DNA of 17,018 nucleotides from a virus (Duplodnaviria; Heunggongvirae; Uroviricota; Caudoviricetes): the IMG/VR virus record IMGVR_UViG_2606217117_000010. One strand, given 5' to 3'. Positions 2,307-9,175 of the stretch are shown here, piece after piece. Position 1 is the stretch's first letter, and each line of letters starts with the position of its first letter. Both the position numbers and the translations under genes were made by a program. A model generated the notes under the pieces. That model had not been told where the DNA came from. It saw only the letters and a program-made list of their open reading frames with translations, and did not search any database.

Positions 2307-2690
2307 ATGCGTGATATTCAGATGGTTCTTGAGCGTTGGGGTGCGTGGGCGGCTAATAATCATGAAGATGTGACCTGGTCGTCCATTGCCGCCGGTTTTA
2401 AGGGATTAATTCCTTCAAAAGTAAAATCTCGCCCGCAATGTTGTGACGATGACGCGATGATCATTTGCGGGTGCATGGCCCGTCTGAAAAAGAACAACAG
2501 CGATTTACACGATTTATTAGTAGATTATTATGTATGTGGTATGACATTCATGTCACTGGCAAGTAAGCATTGCTGCTCGGATGGTTATATCGGGAAAAGG
2601 TTACAGAAGGCTGAGGGCATAATTGAAGGGATGTTAATGGCATTAGATATCCGGTTAGATATGGATATCGTTGCTAATAATTCTAATTGA
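2307..2690 (+). CDS. quuD: late-gene antiterminator Q (phage 82 / DLP12 QuuD type)
   Basis: 127 aa [62 protein letters not shown]... is cysteine-rich (putative Zn site) and matches 82-type Q/QuuD as I recall it. GGAG RBS at 2296-2299. The ORF-track TTG at 2292 is an upstream extension. Confidence 0.85.
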
Positions 2691-2827
2691 TATGCAATTG
2701 TTTACTAAAAGTTATTAAAAATGGGGCGTGGAAACGCCCCCAAAATAAAGGGTAATATATAACAGAAGGTTTATATAGTAAGAAGCAAGGTAGTGCTTCT
2801 AAAGGAAGTGGCTTGAGGGCTCCACTT
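2691..2827 (+). promoter_or_regulatory. possible Q-proximal late promoter / qut region (location uncertain; alternative site at 4160-4205)
   Basis: Inference from lambdoid architecture, where PR' and qut lie directly downstream of Q and upstream of a terminator. An intrinsic terminator lies at 2828-2868, but I could not identify a convincing -35/-10 pair here. Confidence 0.25.
2711..2740 (-). terminator. rho-independent terminator of the porin gene (minus strand)
   Basis: Hairpin GGGGCG-TGGAAA-CGCCCC at 2723-2740. On the minus strand it is followed by ATTTTTAATAAC (reverse complement of 2711-2722). Confidence 0.6.
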
Positions 2828-2878
2828 ATATGTTGCGGAGGCAAAGCCTCCCGCAACATATCTTTTTCGTAAGTCAGA
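2741..2878 (-). ncRNA. ipeX: porin 3'-UTR with strong internal hairpin; candidate IpeX-like regulatory RNA
   Basis: Untranslated stretch between the porin stop (2879) and its terminator, containing the 14-bp-stem hairpin at 2828-2861. An sRNA (IpeX) has been described in the equivalent nmpC 3' region of DLP12 and phage PA-2, as I recall. Sequence identity to IpeX was not verified. Confidence 0.3.
2828..2868 (+). terminator. rho-independent terminator on + strand downstream of Q (tR'-like, or terminator of early rightward transcription)
   Basis: Stem ATATGTTGCGGAGG (2828-2841), loop CAAAG, stem CCTCCCGCAACATAT (2847-2861) with a 1-nt bulge, followed by CTTTTTCG. Confidence 0.6.
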
Positions 2879-3961
2879 TTAGAACTGATAAACCAGACCT
2901 ACAGCGACGATGTCGTCGGTATCAATACCAGCTGTTTTGGTAAACTTACTATCGTCAATTAAGTTGATTTTGTAATCAACAAAAGTAGACATGTTTTTAT
3001 TAAAGTAGTAAGTAGCACCGACATCGACATACTTGACTAAGTCTCGGTCACCATGAACACCAAGGTCTTTACCTTTTGACTGAAGGTAAGCAACAGATGG
3101 GCGCAGACCGAAGTCAAACTGATATTGTGCTACTGCTTCAAAGTTTTGTGCTTTGTTTGCAATATGGTTATTACCAAAAACGGTCATATTCTGAGTTTCA
3201 GAATATGTGGTAGCCAGATAGATATTGTTCGCATCATATTTCAGGCCTGCAGCCCATACTTCCGCATTTTTGCCGGAGGCATTGAATTTGCTCTTACCAT
3301 AGGCGACCTGACCGTCAGTGCGATCTGATTTAGCATAGGTTGCACCCACGCCGAATCCTTCATACTCATAAGTAGTGGAGAAACCGAAACCATCACCATT
3401 GGCTTCAGTTACGTCAGTGCGGTCATTTTTACCCTGATACTGAGCAGCAAAGTTCAGGCCATCGACCAGACCAAAGAAGTCGTTGTTACGATAAGTTGCA
3501 ACACCAGTAGTGCGACCAGTCATGAACACATCTGTTTGGGTCCAGGTATCACCACCGAATTCTGGCAGAACGTCAGTCCACGCACCGATGTCGTATGCTA
3601 CACCGTAGTTACGGCCGTAATCGATGGAGCCGTAATCACCAAATTTCAGGCCTGCAAATGCAAGACGGGTTTTGTCTTTGGAAGAACCTTGAGATTCAGC
3701 ACGGTTGCCTTTGAATTCATATTCCCACTGACCGAAACCAGTCAGTTGATCGTTGATTTGGGTTTCACCTTTGAAGCCAAGACGGGCATAAGTAGTATCA
3801 CCATCATCTGCATCATTAGAGGAGAAGTAGTGCTTGGCATTAACTTTCCCGTATAGATCCAGCTTGTTACTGTCTTTATTATAAATTTCAGCTGCCTGAG
3901 CAGACATCGCCATCAGTACTGATGCAGCTACAGCAGAAATTGCCACTGTTAATTTTTTCAT
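2879..3961 (-). CDS. nmpC: outer membrane porin, OmpC/PhoE general bacterial porin family (prophage NmpC / Lc type)
   Basis: 360 aa from ATG at 3961-3959. Signal peptide [23 protein letters not shown] followed by [16 protein letters not shown], and C-terminal ...VAVGLVYQF ending in Phe: hallmark porin features. Located between Q and the holin as nmpC is in DLP12. The ORF-track start at 4021 is an upstream extension. Confidence 0.9.
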
Positions 3962-4159
3962 TGTACGCCCTTTTTTTGAACTATTATTAAAAAATGATGT
4001 CACTGCGCGATAAATATTCATCTAATCAATGTGATTATTTCAAGATGTAAGTTTTAGTTTCTCATTTAATTTGTGAAGTAGATCTCTATTTTTATCTGAA
4101 CCTTTTCTATCTAATCCTATTCATGGCTCTTGTCTGAACAAAAATAAATCTATTAGCTA

Positions 4160-4205
4160 ATTTATATTAATGGCACTTATTTATAAGTGCTCTATAATTC
4201 TTTAG
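4160..4205 (+). promoter_or_regulatory. candidate sigma70 promoter (possible late promoter PR' driving a short terminated leader RNA)
   Basis: -35-like ATGGCA (4170-4175), 17-bp spacer, perfect -10 TATAAT (4193-4198). It lies about 190 nt upstream of the intrinsic terminator at 4388-4420, analogous to lambda PR'-tR'. The region is AT-rich, so a chance match is possible. Confidence 0.3.
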
Positions 4206-4387
4206 CTTAATTTAAACAAACTAAAAATAACATCGGAAATTATTAACTGATTATTTGTTGAAGTTTTCTTATGTATTTGTGGTGGTGTTTTGAACACTCG
4301 GTGGCATTCTCACAAATATCATTTAGTAGTTTACGTACGTAAAAAATTGGTTATGCTGTTAAGAGTGGTTACTTCGTCACACAGCTT

Positions 4388-4420
4388 AAACCCGCCGTCG
4401 AGCGGGTTTTTCCATTTTTT
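4388..4420 (+). terminator. rho-independent terminator on + strand, 130 bp upstream of the holin gene (tR'-like candidate)
   Basis: Stem AAACCCGC (4388-4395), loop CGTCGA, stem GCGGGTTT (4402-4409), followed by TTCCATTTTTT. Confidence 0.55.
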
Positions 4421-4549
4421 GAGTCTCGATATTAGCTGATAACCCAATACCTGAGTTATTCACTGACTCCGAATCTGTTACGTTTCTGCCTTTATTGCGA
4501 TACGTAATATCCCCTTAATTTACACCCGCTTTGTCTGCGAGGTGGGGTT

Positions 4550-4765
4550 ATGAAATCCATGGATAAGTTAACAACGGGTGTCGCCTATGGCACCTCAGCA
4601 GGTAGTGCCGGTTACTGGTTTTTACCGCTGCTCGATAAAGTCACGCCCTCACAGTGGGCAGCAATAGGTGTGCTGGGTAGCCTGGTATTTGGCCTGCTGA
4701 CGTACCTGACAAACCTTTATTTCAAGATTAAAGAAGATAAGCGCAAGGCTGCGAGAGGTGAATAA
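4550..4765 (+). CDS. essD: class II holin / pinholin (phage 21 S21 type) with dual-start motif
   Basis: 71 aa [71 protein letters not shown] has two TMDs and a basic C-terminus. Met1-Lys-Ser-Met4 is the antiholin/holin dual start. Matches S21 as I recall it. Confidence 0.9.
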
Positions 4766-5262
4766 TGCCTCCATCATTACGAAAAGCCGTTGCTGCTGCT
4801 ATTGGTGGCGGAGCAATTGCTATAGCATCAGTGTTAATCACTGGCCCAAGTGGTAACGATGGTCTGGAAGGTGTCAGCTACATACCATACAAAGATATTG
4901 TTGGTGTATGGACTGTATGTCACGGGCATACAGGAAAAGACATCATGCTCGGTAAAACGTATACCAAAGCAGAATGCAAAGCCCTCCTGAATAAAGACCT
5001 TGCCACGGTCGCCAGACAAATTAACCCGTACATCAAAGTCGATATACCGGAAACAATGCGCGGCGCTCTTTACTCATTCGTTTACAACGTGGGTGCTGGC
5101 AATTTCAGAACATCGACGCTTCTTCGCAAAATAAACCAGGGCGATATCAAAGGCGCATGTGATCAGCTACGTCGCTGGACATATGCTGGCGGTAAGCAAT
5201 GGAAAGGTCTCATGACTCGTCGTGAGATTGAGCGTGAAATCTGTTTGTGGGGTCAGCAATGA
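4765..5262 (+). CDS. rrrD: SAR endolysin (T4-lysozyme-like, GH24; phage 21 R21 type)
   Basis: N-terminal signal-anchor-release domain [20 protein letters not shown], followed by a catalytic E...D...T triad region ([24 protein letters not shown]). GAGAGG RBS. Start overlaps the holin stop by 1 nt. Confidence 0.9.
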
Positions 5263-5723
5263 ACAGAGTAACCGCGATTATCTCCGCTCTGGTTATCTGC
5301 ATCATCGTCTGCCTGTCATGGGCTGTTAATCATTACCGTGATAACGCCATTACCTACAAAGCCCAGCGCGACAAAAATGCCAGAGAACTGAAGCTGGCGA
5401 ACGCGGCAATTACTGACATGCAGATGCGTCAGCGTGATGTTGCTGCGCTCGATGCAAAATACACGAAGGAGTTAGCTGATGCGAAAGCTGAAAATGATGC
5501 TCTGCGTGATGATGTTGCCGCTGGTCGTCGTCGGTTGCACATCAAAGCAGTCTGTCAGTCAGTGCGTGAAGCCACCACCGCCTCCGGCGTGGATAATGCA
5601 GCCTCCCCCCGACTGGCAGACACCGCTGAACGGGATTATTTCACCCTCCGGGAACGACTGGTAATGATGCAGGCCCAACTTGAAGGTGCTCAGCAATACA
5701 TAACCGAGCAGTGTTTAAAGTAA
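5259..5723 (+). CDS. rzpD: i-spanin Rz
   Basis: [61 protein letters not shown]... has an N-terminal TMD and coiled coil, and is near-identical to lambda Rz as I recall it. ATG 5259 overlaps the endolysin stop (ATGA). Confidence 0.85.
5479..5664 (+). CDS. rzoD: o-spanin Rz1 (outer-membrane lipoprotein), embedded in the +1 frame of Rz
   Basis: [24 protein letters not shown]... carries a lipobox (VVGC), followed by the proline-rich [15 protein letters not shown]. Entirely nested inside Rz. Confidence 0.85.
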
Positions 5724-5860
5724 AATCTTAACTACAATATGATTCATTTTGATGATTGTTTCATAAGGAACAGTGAAGTAAGATCTAAGAGGAGTTAAAT
5801 TTTATACAGTATAATCATAATATTGCAGCAAGGTGGTTATAATTGAAAGAATATTTAGAT

Positions 5861-7318
5861 ATGAATACATCTCATGTAAGAGTTGTTACTCATATGTGTG
5901 GGTTCCTGGTTTGGCTCTATAGTCTTTCAATGTTGCCACCAATGGTTGTAGCATTGTTTTATAAAGAAAAAAGCCTGTTCGTTTTCTTTATAACTTTCGT
6001 TATATTTTTTTGCATTGGTGGCGGAGCGTGGTATACAACTAAGAAATCTGGCATTCAATTACGTACCCGTGATGGGTTTATTATAATTGTAATGTTTTGG
6101 ATTTTGTTTTCTGTTATTAGTGCATTCCCTTTATGGATTGACTCAGAACTTAATTTAACGTTCATTGATGCTCTGTTTGAAGGGGTTTCTGGAATAACAA
6201 CAACAGGAGCAACTGTAATTGATGATGTTAGTTCATTACCTCGGGCATATTTGTACTATCGGTCACAGTTAAATTTTATAGGTGGTTTAGGAGTTATTGT
6301 TCTGGCGGTTGCTGTATTGCCATTATTGGGTATTGGTGGTGCAAAGCTTTATCAGTCAGAAATGCCGGGGCCATTTAAGGATGACAAACTCACTCCCCGC
6401 CTGGCCGATACGTCACGGACACTGTGGATAACTTATTCTTTATTAGGTATTGCTTGTATTGTCTGTTATAGACTTGCAGGAATGTCTTTGTTTGATGCTA
6501 TTTGTCACGGGATTTCCACAGTTTCGCTTGGTGGTTTCTCAACTCATAGCGAGAGTATCGGATATTTTAATAACTATTTGGTTGAGCTGGTGGCTGGTTC
6601 TTTTTCCCTGCTATCGGCTTTCAACTTCACTCTTTGGTATATTGTTATTAGCAGAAAAACGATAAAACCTTTAATCAGAGATATTGAACTTCGTTTCTTT
6701 CTGTTAATAGCCTTAGGGATGATCATTGTTACCTCTTTCCAGGTCTGGCATATAGGTATGTATGACTTGCATGGAAGTTTTATTCATTCGTTTTTTCTTG
6801 CCAGCTCCATGCTCACTGATAATGGTTTAGCTACGCAGGATTATGCAAACTGGCCCACGCACACGATAGTGTTTTTGCTGTTGTCAAGTTTCTTTGGGGG
6901 ATGTATCGGTTCAACCTGTGGTGGAATTAAGTCACTTCGATTTCTTATACTTTTCAAACAAAGCAAACACGAGATAAATCAACTTTCTCATCCCAGAGCG
7001 TTGTTAAGTGTAAATGTAGGAGGGAAGATAGTTACAGATCGTGTAATGAGGTCTGTATGGAGTTTCTTTTTTCTTTATACTCTCTTCACGGTGTTTTTTA
7101 TACTGGTGTTAAATGGTATGGGATATGATTTTCTTACATCATTTGCAACAGTGGCTGCATGTATTAATAATATGGGATTAGGTTTTGGGGCTACTGCATC
7201 GTCATTCGGAGTGCTTAATGACATTGCAAAATATTTAATGTGCATAGCTATGATTCTTGGTCGCCTTGAAATTTATCCTGTTATTATATTGTTTTCAGGT
7301 TTTTTTTGGCGCTCCTAA
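5861..7318 (+). CDS. trkG: Trk-system potassium uptake protein TrkG (TrkH/KtrB superfamily)
   Basis: 485 aa polytopic membrane protein with repeated selectivity-filter-like glycine motifs (GITTTGATV, GIGGAK, SLGGFS, GSTCGGIK). Matches the Rac-prophage TrkG of E. coli as I recall it. AT-rich gene downstream of Rz/Rz1, as in Rac. The ORF-track TTG at 5843 is an upstream extension. Confidence 0.9.
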   Translation: MNTSHVRVVTHMCGFLVWLYSLSMLPPMVVALFYKEKSLFVFFITFVIFFCIGGGAWYTTKKSGIQLRTRDGFIIIVMFWILFSVISAFPLWIDSELNLTFIDALFEGVSGITTTGATVIDDVSSLPRAYLYYRSQLNFIGGLGVIVLAVAVLPLLGIGGAKLYQSEMPGPFKDDKLTPRLADTSRTLWITYSLLGIACIVCYRLAGMSLFDAICHGISTVSLGGFSTHSESIGYFNNYLVELVAGSFSLLSAFNFTLWYIVISRKTIKPLIRDIELRFFLLIALGMIIVTSFQVWHIGMYDLHGSFIHSFFLASSMLTDNGLATQDYANWPTHTIVFLLLSSFFGGCIGSTCGGIKSLRFLILFKQSKHEINQLSHPRALLSVNVGGKIVTDRVMRSVWSFFFLYTLFTVFFILVLNGMGYDFLTSFATVAACINNMGLGFGATASSFGVLNDIAKYLMCIAMILGRLEIYPVIILFSGFFWRS

Positions 7319-7404
7319 TATATGGCTGATTTATAATTGTGAGTTTAATATTATGTTGACTCACTCATTGATCCAATACCTAACTTTACCAGCAACACCT
7401 CCGC

Positions 7405-7439
7405 CCCCAGTAGCACTGGCTGCTGGGGTGCGTTTTATT
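7405..7439 (+). terminator. rho-independent terminator downstream of trkG
   Basis: Stem CCCCAGTAGC (7405-7414), loop ACTG, stem GCTGCTGGGG (7419-7428, one G-U pair), followed by TGCGTTTTATT. Confidence 0.55.
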
Positions 7440-7455
7440 CATAAAGCAAGGCTGT

Positions 7456-8250
7456 ATGAGCGAGAAATTAAAGATAGTCTATCGCCCATTACAAGAATTG
7501 TCACCGTATGCGCACAATGCCAGGACGCACAGTACTGAGCAGGTGGCACAACTGGTAGAAAGTATTAAGCAATTCGGCTGGACTAATCCGGTGCTGATTG
7601 ACGAAAAGGGCAAAATTATTGCGGGTCACGGTCGTGTTATGGCGGCTGAAATGCTCAAAATGGATTCTGTTCCGGTCATTGTTCTGTCTGGCCTGACGGA
7701 TGAGCAGAAAAAGGCGTACCGCCTGGCAGATAATCGCCTGCCGATGAATGCTGGCTGGGATGAAGATCTGTTGCGGATGGAGCTGTCGGACCTAATCAAT
7801 GCTGATTTTGATGTCTCCCTGACAGGCTTCATCCCGACAGAAATTGATGAACTGTTGACGGATGTTTTGCCCGGTACAGGAAATGAGGAGGAGCCGTATA
7901 CGACGAAAATTGATACGCCTGTTTATGAGCCGTCGGGCGGTAAACCGGATATCAGTGAACTGTACGACGATACGAAAACTCAGGAGCTGATCAGCCGGAT
8001 ACGTTCGGCGTCCCTTGATCCTGATATTGAGAAATTCCTCCTGTGTGCGGCAGAACGTCACACAGTGTTTAATTTCAGCAGAATTGCGGACTATTACGCT
8101 CATGCCCCCGCTGAAATTCAGTGCCTTTTCGAGGAGTCGGCGCTGGTGATCATTGATTATCAGCAGGCTATTGAAAATGGATTTGTCCGAATGACGCAGC
8201 GCATGGTGGAGATCATGCATGGCGGGGAGGAGGAGGAGGAATATGCGTGA
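7456..8250 (+). CDS. ParB/sulfiredoxin-like nuclease-domain protein (ParB N-terminal domain plus uncharacterised C-terminal domain with poly-Glu tail)
   Basis: N-terminal IVYRPLQELSPYAHNARTH...NPVLIDEKGKIIAGHGRVMAAEM resembles the ParB/Srx fold, with a G-x-G-R box in place of the ParB GERRxRA patch. The C-terminus GGEEEEEYA is encoded by GGAGGAGGAGGAGGAA, which doubles as the RBS of the next gene. A Rac-prophage ynaK-like position is possible but unverified. Confidence 0.75.
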   Translation: MSEKLKIVYRPLQELSPYAHNARTHSTEQVAQLVESIKQFGWTNPVLIDEKGKIIAGHGRVMAAEMLKMDSVPVIVLSGLTDEQKKAYRLADNRLPMNAGWDEDLLRMELSDLINADFDVSLTGFIPTEIDELLTDVLPGTGNEEEPYTTKIDTPVYEPSGGKPDISELYDDTKTQELISRIRSASLDPDIEKFLLCAAERHTVFNFSRIADYYAHAPAEIQCLFEESALVIIDYQQAIENGFVRMTQRMVEIMHGGEEEEEYA

Positions 8251-9175
8251 TGATTTTTGCGCCTTTATTCTGACTCACGGGCGACCGGACAAAGTTCTGA
8301 CTTACCGGACGTTGCGTCGTGCTGGCTATACCGGGAAAATTTTTATCGTTGTTGATGATGAAGATAAGACACGGCATCAGTACATGGCTGAATTTGGTGA
8401 ACAGGTGCTGGTATTTTCCAAAGCCGATATTGCCAGTCGTTTTGACGAAGCCGATAATTTTGGTGATCGCCGCTCAATTTTTTACGCCCGTAATGCCTGT
8501 TTCGACCTGGCAAAACTGGTCGGGTGTAAATACTTCATTCAGCTCGATGATGATTATCACGAGTTCCAGTTTCGGGTGGATCGCAACTATGACCAGGCCT
8601 ATTTCCCGATAAGGAAACTGGATGCGATCCTTTCTGAAATGCTGGCGTATTACGAATCAATACCCGCGCTTTCCATCGCTATGTCGCAGGGCGGGGATTT
8701 TCTTGGTGACAATGGCGGCCATGCTTCGTGGGTGAAACGCAAGGCAATGAACAGCTTTATCTGTTCGGTTGATCGACCGTTCTCATTCATGGGGCGCATT
8801 AACGAGGATGTGAATACGTACACGAATCTCGGTCGCTGTGGTGAATTGTTTATGACGATCGGTGCTGTCCAGTTAGGGCAGAAACAGACTCAGAAAAACA
8901 GCGGCGGAATGACCGAGCTGTATCTGGATTCCGGAACCTACGTTAAAAGTTTTTACTCCGTCATGTATTCGCCGTCGTGCGTAAAAATCTCACTGATGGG
9001 TGCCAGCCATAAACGCATTCACCATCAGGTCACCTGGAACAACGCTGCAGTAAAAATCCTTCACGAAAAATACAGGAAGAAGACACCCTGCATATCAATG
9101 GGGGTGACAAATGATTCCGTATTCGAAAGTCGAGTCTCTGGCAGCGTGCCGGATGACTGCACAACAAATCGCTGA
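8243..9175 (+). CDS. uncharacterised protein with N-terminal GT-A (family-2-like) glycosyltransferase fold signature
   Basis: The coding region is well supported: long ORF, strong AGGAGG RBS, 8-nt overlap with the upstream stop. Alternative ATG at 8219 gives MAGRRRRN-. The function is a motif-level guess: AFILTHGRPD...IFIVVDDEDK...ARNACFDLAKLVGCKYFIQLDDDYHEF resembles the GT2 pattern (beta-strand with DD, then ARN...G.Y...LDxDD/DxD). Confidence 0.6.
   Translation: MRDDFCAFILTHGRPDKVLTYRTLRRAGYTGKIFIVVDDEDKTRHQYMAEFGEQVLVFSKADIASRFDEADNFGDRRSIFYARNACFDLAKLVGCKYFIQLDDDYHEFQFRVDRNYDQAYFPIRKLDAILSEMLAYYESIPALSIAMSQGGDFLGDNGGHASWVKRKAMNSFICSVDRPFSFMGRINEDVNTYTNLGRCGELFMTIGAVQLGQKQTQKNSGGMTELYLDSGTYVKSFYSVMYSPSCVKISLMGASHKRIHHQVTWNNAAVKILHEKYRKKTPCISMGVTNDSVFESRVSGSVPDDCTTNR

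Follow-up and report, generated by a model that had tools for sequence, protein, structure and literature searches.

Late transcription in lambdoid phages is generally described from phage lambda, and the textbook rule is that the late promoter PR' directly follows the gene of the antiterminator Q. The record of the Shiga toxin (Stx) phage 933W likewise annotates a putative pR', a Q-utilisation (qut) site and a terminator directly after Q, and for the Stx2a phage of strain Sakai, differential RNA sequencing (dRNA-seq) and Term-seq put 258 nucleotides (nt) between the start at PR' and the 3' end at tR' (Sy et al.). For DLP12, the lysis operon has been reported, as related in a citing paper, to be under the control of the prophage Q, with terminator read-through included. 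Here, we analyze a 588-base-pair (bp) gap at positions 3962-4549 of IMG/VR virus record IMGVR_UViG_2606217117_000010, a stretch of 17,018 nt (hereafter the window) which is a lambdoid prophage of the PA-2/DLP12/2G7b type. The gap lies between the start codon of a minus-strand porin gene (CAT, 3959-3961 on the plus strand) and the holin ATG at 4550. It is highly probable that positions 4330-4420 form the Q-dependent late regulatory cassette of this prophage, belonging to the family of the pR'/qut/tR' elements of 933W and cut off from Q by a 1.6-kilobase (kb) porin cassette on the opposite strand.

The 933W block that carries pR', qut and the terminator matches the window only once, at 4327-4411 (77.6% identity over 85 nt, E-value 7e-14), and has no match in 2691-2878, the stretch beside the window Q gene, where the whole 933W locus is unmatched as well. 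An earlier note on this DNA, made from the letters alone, had suggested that the late promoter, the qut site and the terminator might sit downstream of the porin gene rather than next to Q, and had pointed to 2691-2827 as the place where qut/PR' homology could lie instead; the single match bears out the former. The interpretation in the note is thus supported in part, the late promoter, the Q-utilisation region and the first terminator being located in the gap, and we hold the reading as a whole with high confidence. A PR' adjoining Q was considered and rejected, since 2691-2878 is unmatched by 933W and contains the porin 3' untranslated region and two terminators instead. When the two promoters are aligned column for column, TTTACG-16-TATCAT of 933W corresponds to TTTACG-16-TATGCT on the plus strand of the window, with the -35 hexamer at 4330-4335 and the -10 hexamer at 4352-4357.

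A search of the phage collection with the 933W block returned 363 records (E-values down to 2e-10), and in approximately 300 Stx phages the block extends over the 3' end of the Q gene. Viral contigs were also scanned for the conserved leader start, which yielded 120 loci (71 distinct 160-nt versions). Common to all of them are the -10 column, the initial sequence AGTGGTTACTTCGCCACACAGCTT and, 24-35 nt past the start, a hairpin with its U-tract. Nearly all variants have TAnnnT in the -10 column, and the second-position A and sixth-position T are retained in every variant examined. Positions 4327-4445 are nearly invariant across 31 variants of the gap. No earlier record or paper placing a promoter at 4330-4364 was found in a literature search that was itself incomplete.

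The transcription start is assigned to the A of AGTGGTTAC at 4364 on the plus strand, 7 nt past TATGCT. In the plus-strand Cappable-seq data of K-12 MG1655 (U00096.2), three consecutive starts fall at 576081 (score 90.2), 576452 (score 1.7) and 576907. Coordinates were converted by adding 777 to U00096.2 to obtain NC_000913.3, subtracting 572499 to obtain locus L004 and subtracting a further 366 to obtain the window; by this route 576452 becomes NC_000913.3 577229, L004 4730 and, exactly, window A4364. In both 933W and Sakai Sp5, the U-tract of the second terminator ends exactly 257 nt downstream of the homologous A, which fits the 258-nt PR' transcript. Because the K-12 Cappable-seq start and the Sakai geometry agree, the start at A4364 is supported by two independent data sets, both obtained from orthologous prophages (K-12 DLP12 and Sakai Sp5) and not from this strain.

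The case for a module that still answers to a distant Q rests most of all on the co-variation of Q with a short palindrome within the module. The window Q gene (2307-2690, plus strand; Pfam PF06530, E-value 7.7e-54) encodes a protein of 127 amino acids that is 81% identical to Q of 933W over residues 1-120 and distantly related to the structurally solved Q21 (E-value 4e-8). A perfect 14-bp palindrome, TTTACGTACGTAAA, occupies 4330-4343, is centred at -28/-27 and overlaps the -35 hexamer. Seven representative sequences, whose six sequence types correspond to six Q classes, all carry a palindrome with this centre: TTTACGTACGTAAA in the window, TTTACGATCGTAAA in 933W, and GCGTACGC, GCGGTCCGC, ATTCGTTACGAAT, TGGAATTCCA and TGTTATAACA in the others. 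In every version the palindrome, at -34 to -21 and of one type per Q class in the six classes, is followed by an A-tract immediately upstream of the -10 hexamer. Its type matches the Q class, as defined by the sequence of the helix-turn-helix region, in 102 of the 102 loci with a complete Q gene, both where Q and the module are 6-41 nt apart and where they are separated by 627-2886 nt holding at least 20 different inserts. Because of this co-variation, the palindrome may be regarded as a candidate Q-binding element and the module as still addressed by its own, distant Q. Its position also agrees with that of the Q21 element, which lies at about -25 to -12.

The 3' end of the window Q gene differs from that of 933W. 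Identity between the two proteins ends at residue 120, where the last 7 residues of the window protein replace 24 in 933W (window 2667-2690 versus 2860-2935 of locus L005), which points to a mosaic joint within the 3' end of the gene; in 933W, the 3' coding sequence of Q overlaps pR'.

Downstream of the start, positions 4364-4387 (plus strand) form a conserved initial transcribed region, AGTGGTTACTTCGTCACACAGCTT, which is shared across Q classes and is the expected location of a sigma-dependent pause. This region is common to the 120 viral-contig loci and the 363 phage records, which differ in Q class. The 'qut' annotation of 933W corresponds to +8 to +15, and the sequence at +7 to +12 is TACTTC in the window, TACATT in 933W and TACTTT in some relatives. 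The GenBank record of PA-2 labels its positions 1067-1087 as a 'CRP-binding site', which is window 4364-4384 and coincides exactly with the first 21 nt (+1 to +21) of the late transcript; this sequence is conserved in phages without any porin. Porin-type variants have GTCACA in this segment and all others GCCACA, the former giving a better CRP half-site and a weaker small 5' hairpin.

The initial region leads directly into an intrinsic terminator at 4388-4420 on the plus strand, supported by the scan, by folding and by 933W homology, with a stem AAACCCGC/GCGGGTTT, a CGTCGA loop and the tail TTCCATTTTTT; in the scan, the hairpin is reported at 4388-4409, followed by TTCCATTTTT. The stem has 8 bp, five of them G-C pairs, and the site is the only terminator-like one between the late promoter and the holin. 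The earlier note had recognised the same terminator, with the holin 130 nt beyond 4420, and its homologue in 933W is the first terminator downstream of pR'. Each of the 53 distinct leaders has a terminator at the same distance, either conserved or swapped for another, and in distant relatives hairpins and U-tracts of unrelated sequence take this place. Close relatives are too invariant for compensatory base pairs to be counted; what supports the terminator is that distant relatives have unrelated ones in its place. In this comparative sense, judged across related loci, the terminator is real.

Taken together, these elements suggest the following course of events. Sigma-70 RNA polymerase would start at A4364 from TTTACG-16-TATGCT, a start position shown in K-12 DLP12, and would transcribe the conserved 24-nt initial region, probably pausing within it. 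Without Q, transcription would stop at the hairpin and U-tract of 4388-4420, giving a leader of approximately 50 nt. Q, made from the early rightward transcript, would bind the palindrome overlapping the -35 hexamer, as suggested by homology and by the co-variation of Q and palindrome, and on the same grounds would be loaded onto the paused polymerase, leading to read-through into the genes for holin, endolysin, Rz and the virion. The same terminator may also stop plus-strand transcripts that begin near 3994 and 4011.

Several observations weigh against this reading. The start evidence is drawn from orthologous prophages; in K-12, the start corresponding to 4364 scores only 1.7, a weak value beside the 90 of the start at 3994; and the core hexamers match the consensus at only 4/6 and 4/6 positions and were missed by the consensus scan. 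The candidate pause element TACTTC is without the final T of TACATT in 933W, and a sigma-dependent pause is not evident from the sequence. The candidate site is a palindrome, whereas Q21 binds direct repeats. Folding of the 59-nt leader on its own exceeds that of shuffled sequences by no more than a modest margin (z-score -1.56), and no 3' end at the terminator appears in the supplements of three K-12 papers, whose data may be incomplete. Moreover, the PR' RNA of Stx phages ends at +258, at a second terminator, and the window is without a second terminator before the holin. Because that RNA ends at +258, the homologous first hairpin is at least partly read through without Q.

With these points in view, three other explanations have to be weighed. 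The earlier note had chosen a different promoter, ATGGCA-17-TATAAT at 4170-4198 on the plus strand, with a start near 4205 and a leader of about 190-215 nt ending at 4388-4420, after the pattern of lambda PR'-6S RNA-tR'. Its description of the gap as AT-rich and free of open reading frames of at least 60 amino acids is accurate: the G+C content falls to 26% and the longest frame has 49 amino acids. The scan also recovers the match, whose hexamers agree with the consensus at 10 of 12 positions; TATAAT (4193-4198) is kept in approximately 28 of 31 distinct gap variants, and the -35 of the window type is the best among them. Promoter-like sites in 2400-5200, however, are fewer than in shuffled sequences (3, versus 6.6 +/- 2.7), so that the match does not exceed chance, and the -35 is not conserved, ATGGCA being confined to the window type and replaced by ATGGCT, ACGGCT or ACGGTT in other variants. 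In the K-12 Cappable-seq plus-strand list, no start falls between the positions that correspond to window 3994 and 4364, and thus none near 4205, an absence that the note had itself counted as a refutation; the K-12 -35 at this place reads ACGGCT. Furthermore, no Q-linked promoter is homologous to the stretch, which is absent from relatives of the same Q class with other cargo and in K-12 falls within a published H-NS-bound 'promoter island'. We therefore consider it very improbable that this is the late promoter, and the match is probably unused. Of the earlier proposal of a relocated PR'/tR', the location and the concept stand, whereas the choice of promoter and the leader length do not: counted from A4364, the leader is approximately 48-57 nt, compared with 194 nt for lambda 6S RNA. 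A trans-acting regulatory small RNA at 4364-~4415, as StxS is for Stx phages, was another option, and an independent small RNA had also been raised as an alternative in the earlier note. In its favour, premature termination from PR' in the same Q family gives an RNA from which StxS, a small RNA that binds Hfq, arises, and the leader in the window ends in a terminator with a U-tract. StxS, however, is the 3' 74 nt of the 258-nt RNA (approximately +185 to +258, with the rpoS/stx1B seed), and it has no homologue in the window: a comparison of 933W +48 to +274 (the StxS region) with the window gave no match at E <= 1, only the first ~48 nt of the precursor being shared. No curated RNA family of Rfam 15 matches at its gathering score in the whole window, and matches in 2650-4600 are at chance level (best E-value 0.34; none credible at E <= 5). 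The fold of the leader is not unusual, and its conserved part is explained by promoter-proximal functions, so that a small-RNA role appears most unlikely.

A third explanation concerns the terminator rather than the promoter. The main job of the 4388-4420 hairpin might be insulation, in that it would stop Q-independent plus-strand transcripts from the porin regulatory region; this is possible, though on balance we doubt it. Such transcripts would be RNAs of approximately 400-430 nt antisense to the porin promoter, the lysis genes would stay almost silent, and low read-through might, no less tentatively, be the basis of basal stress-responsive DLP12 lysis expression. This view draws on the strength of the K-12 start that corresponds to 3994 (score 90, versus 1.7 at 4364), on a single sigma-E-like promoter at 3978-4004, and on the reported RpoE control of the DLP12 lysis cassette (Rueggeberg 2015), from which Pasqua 2021 takes the numbering of a reporter fragment spanning '-121 to +650'; the primers of that fragment are located at window 3890 and ~4674, placing +1 near 4011. 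Against it, conservation of the hairpin and the preceding 24 nt extends to hundreds of phages that lack a porin region and carry Q directly upstream, which ties the origin and the primary role of the hairpin to the late promoter. Insulation would thus add to the Q-dependent late cassette as the best explanation and would not replace it.

The gap as a whole can be divided into three parts, namely a porin regulatory region (3962-~4326), the late-promoter module (4327-4420) and a leader of the lysis cassette (4421-4549), because mosaic joints flank the module on both sides. In relatives with other cargo, homology to the window ends upstream of ~4327. Locus L016 has another Q class, cargo, palindrome and upstream half, together with the downstream sequence and holin of the window, while locus L090 shares the upstream half and has a different downstream sequence. 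The gap is 100% identical to that of phage 2G7b, 92% identical to the classical PA-2 lc region and 90% identical to K-12 DLP12, and some version of it is present in 3277 of 5426 complete E. coli genomes.

The porin upstream regulatory region (3962-4326, minus strand) is AT-rich and belongs to the porin cassette, as indicated by its G+C content of 26% and by the loss of homology in relatives with other cargo; the G+C content is 26-33% across 3900-4400. It was reasonable to expect the minus-strand porin promoter in this gap, as the earlier note did, and the expectation agrees with the PA-2 record and the literature. A CRP-like site, TGTGAAGTAGATCTCT, lies at 4072-4087, and a CRP feature of the PA-2 record maps to 4069-4089; repression of nmpC by OmpR has been reported. 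On the plus strand, the start at A3994 (K-12 Cappable-seq 576081, score 90), with a -10 TATTAT at 3982-3987, is 33 nt from the porin ATG, and the region of this start is overlapped by the sigma-E-like promoter GAACTA-N16-TCACT (3978-4004), the only match in 3900-4600, with an expected start at ~4010-4011. RNAs from 3994 or 4011 would be antisense to the porin promoter and 5' region and would head towards the terminator at 4388.

Two further candidates in the gap were rejected. The 49-amino-acid open reading frame (4290-4439, TTG start) has no Pfam match, overlaps the invariant promoter and terminator, and is gone in relatives with other upstream sequence, which argues against a coding role. 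A perfect 8-bp inverted repeat, GCACTTAT-TT-ATAAGTGC, is present at 4172-4189 inside the ATGGCA/TATAAT match; as a conserved hairpin or operator it fails, being restricted to the window type, and other variants alter one arm without compensation. The untranslated leader of the lysis cassette (4421-4549, plus strand) travels with the holin, as seen from the same downstream sequence and holin in L016. In K-12 DLP12 and 11 of the 31 gap variants, a deletion removes a 17-nt stretch of it (4486-4502), the sole variable part of an otherwise invariant segment.

With 1670 nt and a reverse-strand porin gene between the Q stop codon and the module, Q is not immediately upstream of its promoter, and such non-adjacency is a departure from the textbook layout. 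Among the 102 loci, the interval that corresponds to window 2691-4326 measures 6-41 nt in approximately 27 and 627-2886 nt in the rest. The long intervals nearly always hold reverse-strand genes. The cargo (in loci including L007, L029, L050, L057, L098, L111 and L119) comprises porin, lipoproteins, Kiwa (KwaB, E-value 2e-126), the KAP NTPase PDC-S20 (E-value 1e-177), a HEC-04 ATPase, an HNH protein (PDC-M68A), NA37 with a membrane protein, and an alpha/beta hydrolase. No earlier record or paper describing a cargo slot between Q and its promoter was found in the literature covered, which was not complete. A broader proposal, which we see as evenly balanced between right and wrong, is that the short Q proteins of the Q933W/DLP12 group recognise a class-specific palindrome at -28/-27 in a symmetric mode unlike that of Q21, and also that the interval between Q and promoter is a widespread slot for reverse-strand, lysogen-expressed cargo in which the pairing of Q and site is kept across up to 2.9 kb. 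If true, genes carried in the slot would not be part of the late transcript.

Within the window, the stretch between Q and the porin gene (2691-2878) is 93% identical to K-12 and PA-2. On the plus strand, it contains a hairpin followed by CTTTTT (2828-2868; -22.6 kcal/mol, z-score -3.4, 1 of 200 shuffled sequences folding as well), which lies within the porin 3' untranslated region, has a U-tract on the plus strand only and probably terminates transcription that leaves Q. Another hairpin, at 2723-2740, has a U-tract on the minus strand only and is assigned as the porin terminator. IpeX, a regulator of OmpC and OmpF from the porin 3' untranslated region, is said to lie after the nmpC/lc stop codon (the account being attributed to Castillo-Keller 2006). 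Identity of an element of the gap with IpeX was therefore rejected, since the site of IpeX would be the minus strand of 2691-2878, on the other side of the porin gene.

Upstream of Q, the plus-strand order is Dam methylase, NinX, RusA, YlcG and then Q. The porin gene (2879-3961, minus strand; Pfam Porin_1, E-value 2e-151) is of the lc/nmpC/OmpD type, and the same gene is annotated as a porin in phages 2G7b, PA-2 and 434B and in K-12. It is followed beyond the gap, on the plus strand, by an S21-type holin (4550-4765; Pfam Phage_holin_2_1), a lysozyme serving as endolysin (4765-5262; Phage_lysozyme) and Rz (5247-5723; Phage_lysis). After Rz come a TrkH-like transporter, a ParB_N protein and a TAGT glycosyltransferase, and then the small and large terminase subunits, portal, a Mu-F-like protein and a P22-type coat protein, all on the plus strand. 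The stretch between Rz and terminase (5843-9175), on the late strand, thus carries a TrkH-family cation transporter (E-value 2e-143), a ParB_N-domain protein and the TET-associated glycosyltransferase TAGT (E-value 6e-35), a set that is unusual cargo for a lambdoid late region.

Part of this picture is already known, in that Q control of the DLP12 lysis operon has been published and the 933W elements have been annotated. What is added is a mended annotation for a very common E. coli prophage region, with the late promoter, start and terminator placed to the base, and a reinterpretation of the PA-2 'CRP site', which becomes the conserved beginning of the late RNA. For a large group of lambdoid prophages, the textbook position of PR' directly after Q does not hold, and the slot between Q and the late promoter offers a practical hunting ground for prophage-borne defence genes. 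The candidate Q-binding palindrome would also be a target for toxin-induction experiments, because Q proteins of this family also drive the expression of Shiga toxin 2.

Among the known systems, 933W is the closest. Its pR'/qut/first-terminator block, which equals Sakai Sp5 PR' and the 5' end of StxS-L, shares with the window the TTTACG hexamer, the spacing and the start nucleotide over the 85 nt aligned, and the two have the same kind of 14-bp palindrome, a homologous hairpin and Q proteins that are 81% identical. The arrangement differs: in 933W the -35 hexamer overlaps the last Q codons, with 18 nt from stop codon to module, whereas the window has 1670 nt and a porin gene there; 933W has further terminators and a 258-nt RNA that is processed to StxS, whereas the window has one terminator and no StxS sequence; and the 933W cargo (tRNAs and stx) is downstream of the promoter, whereas that of the window is upstream. 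With lambda PR'-6S RNA-tR', the window shares the logic of a promoter, promoter-proximal Q loading, a terminator before the lysis genes and Q-dependent read-through, although lambda has a Q of an unrelated family, a leader of 194 nt rather than ~50 nt, PR' directly after Q and no sequence similarity. Phage 21 PR' (structures 6P18 and 6JNX) has a Q that shares PF06530 with that of the window and a binding element in the promoter spacer region. Q21, however, has 162 amino acids, a long helix-turn-helix loop and two direct TGAGCA repeats at about -25 to -12, whereas the 127-residue window Q has a short turn and a candidate site that is palindromic and centred at -28/-27.

The nmpC-essD region of DLP12 and the region upstream of PA-2 lc represent the same locus (90-92% identity), with orthologous porin, Q and lysis genes. 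The lysis operon of DLP12 is reported to be responsive to the prophage Q and to RpoE. K-12 DLP12 differs by an IS5 in nmpC and by the 17-nt deletion in the holin leader, and in the DLP12 and PA-2 records retrieved the late promoter is not annotated, PA-2 carrying the CRP label at +1 to +21 in its place. A further parallel is the 'noncontiguous operon' tai/ati of phi80, where an opposite-strand, lysogen-expressed gene likewise lies near a Q-controlled late promoter; in phi80, this reverse gene is downstream of the late promoter and overrun by late transcription, whereas the porin gene of the window is upstream and is not overrun.

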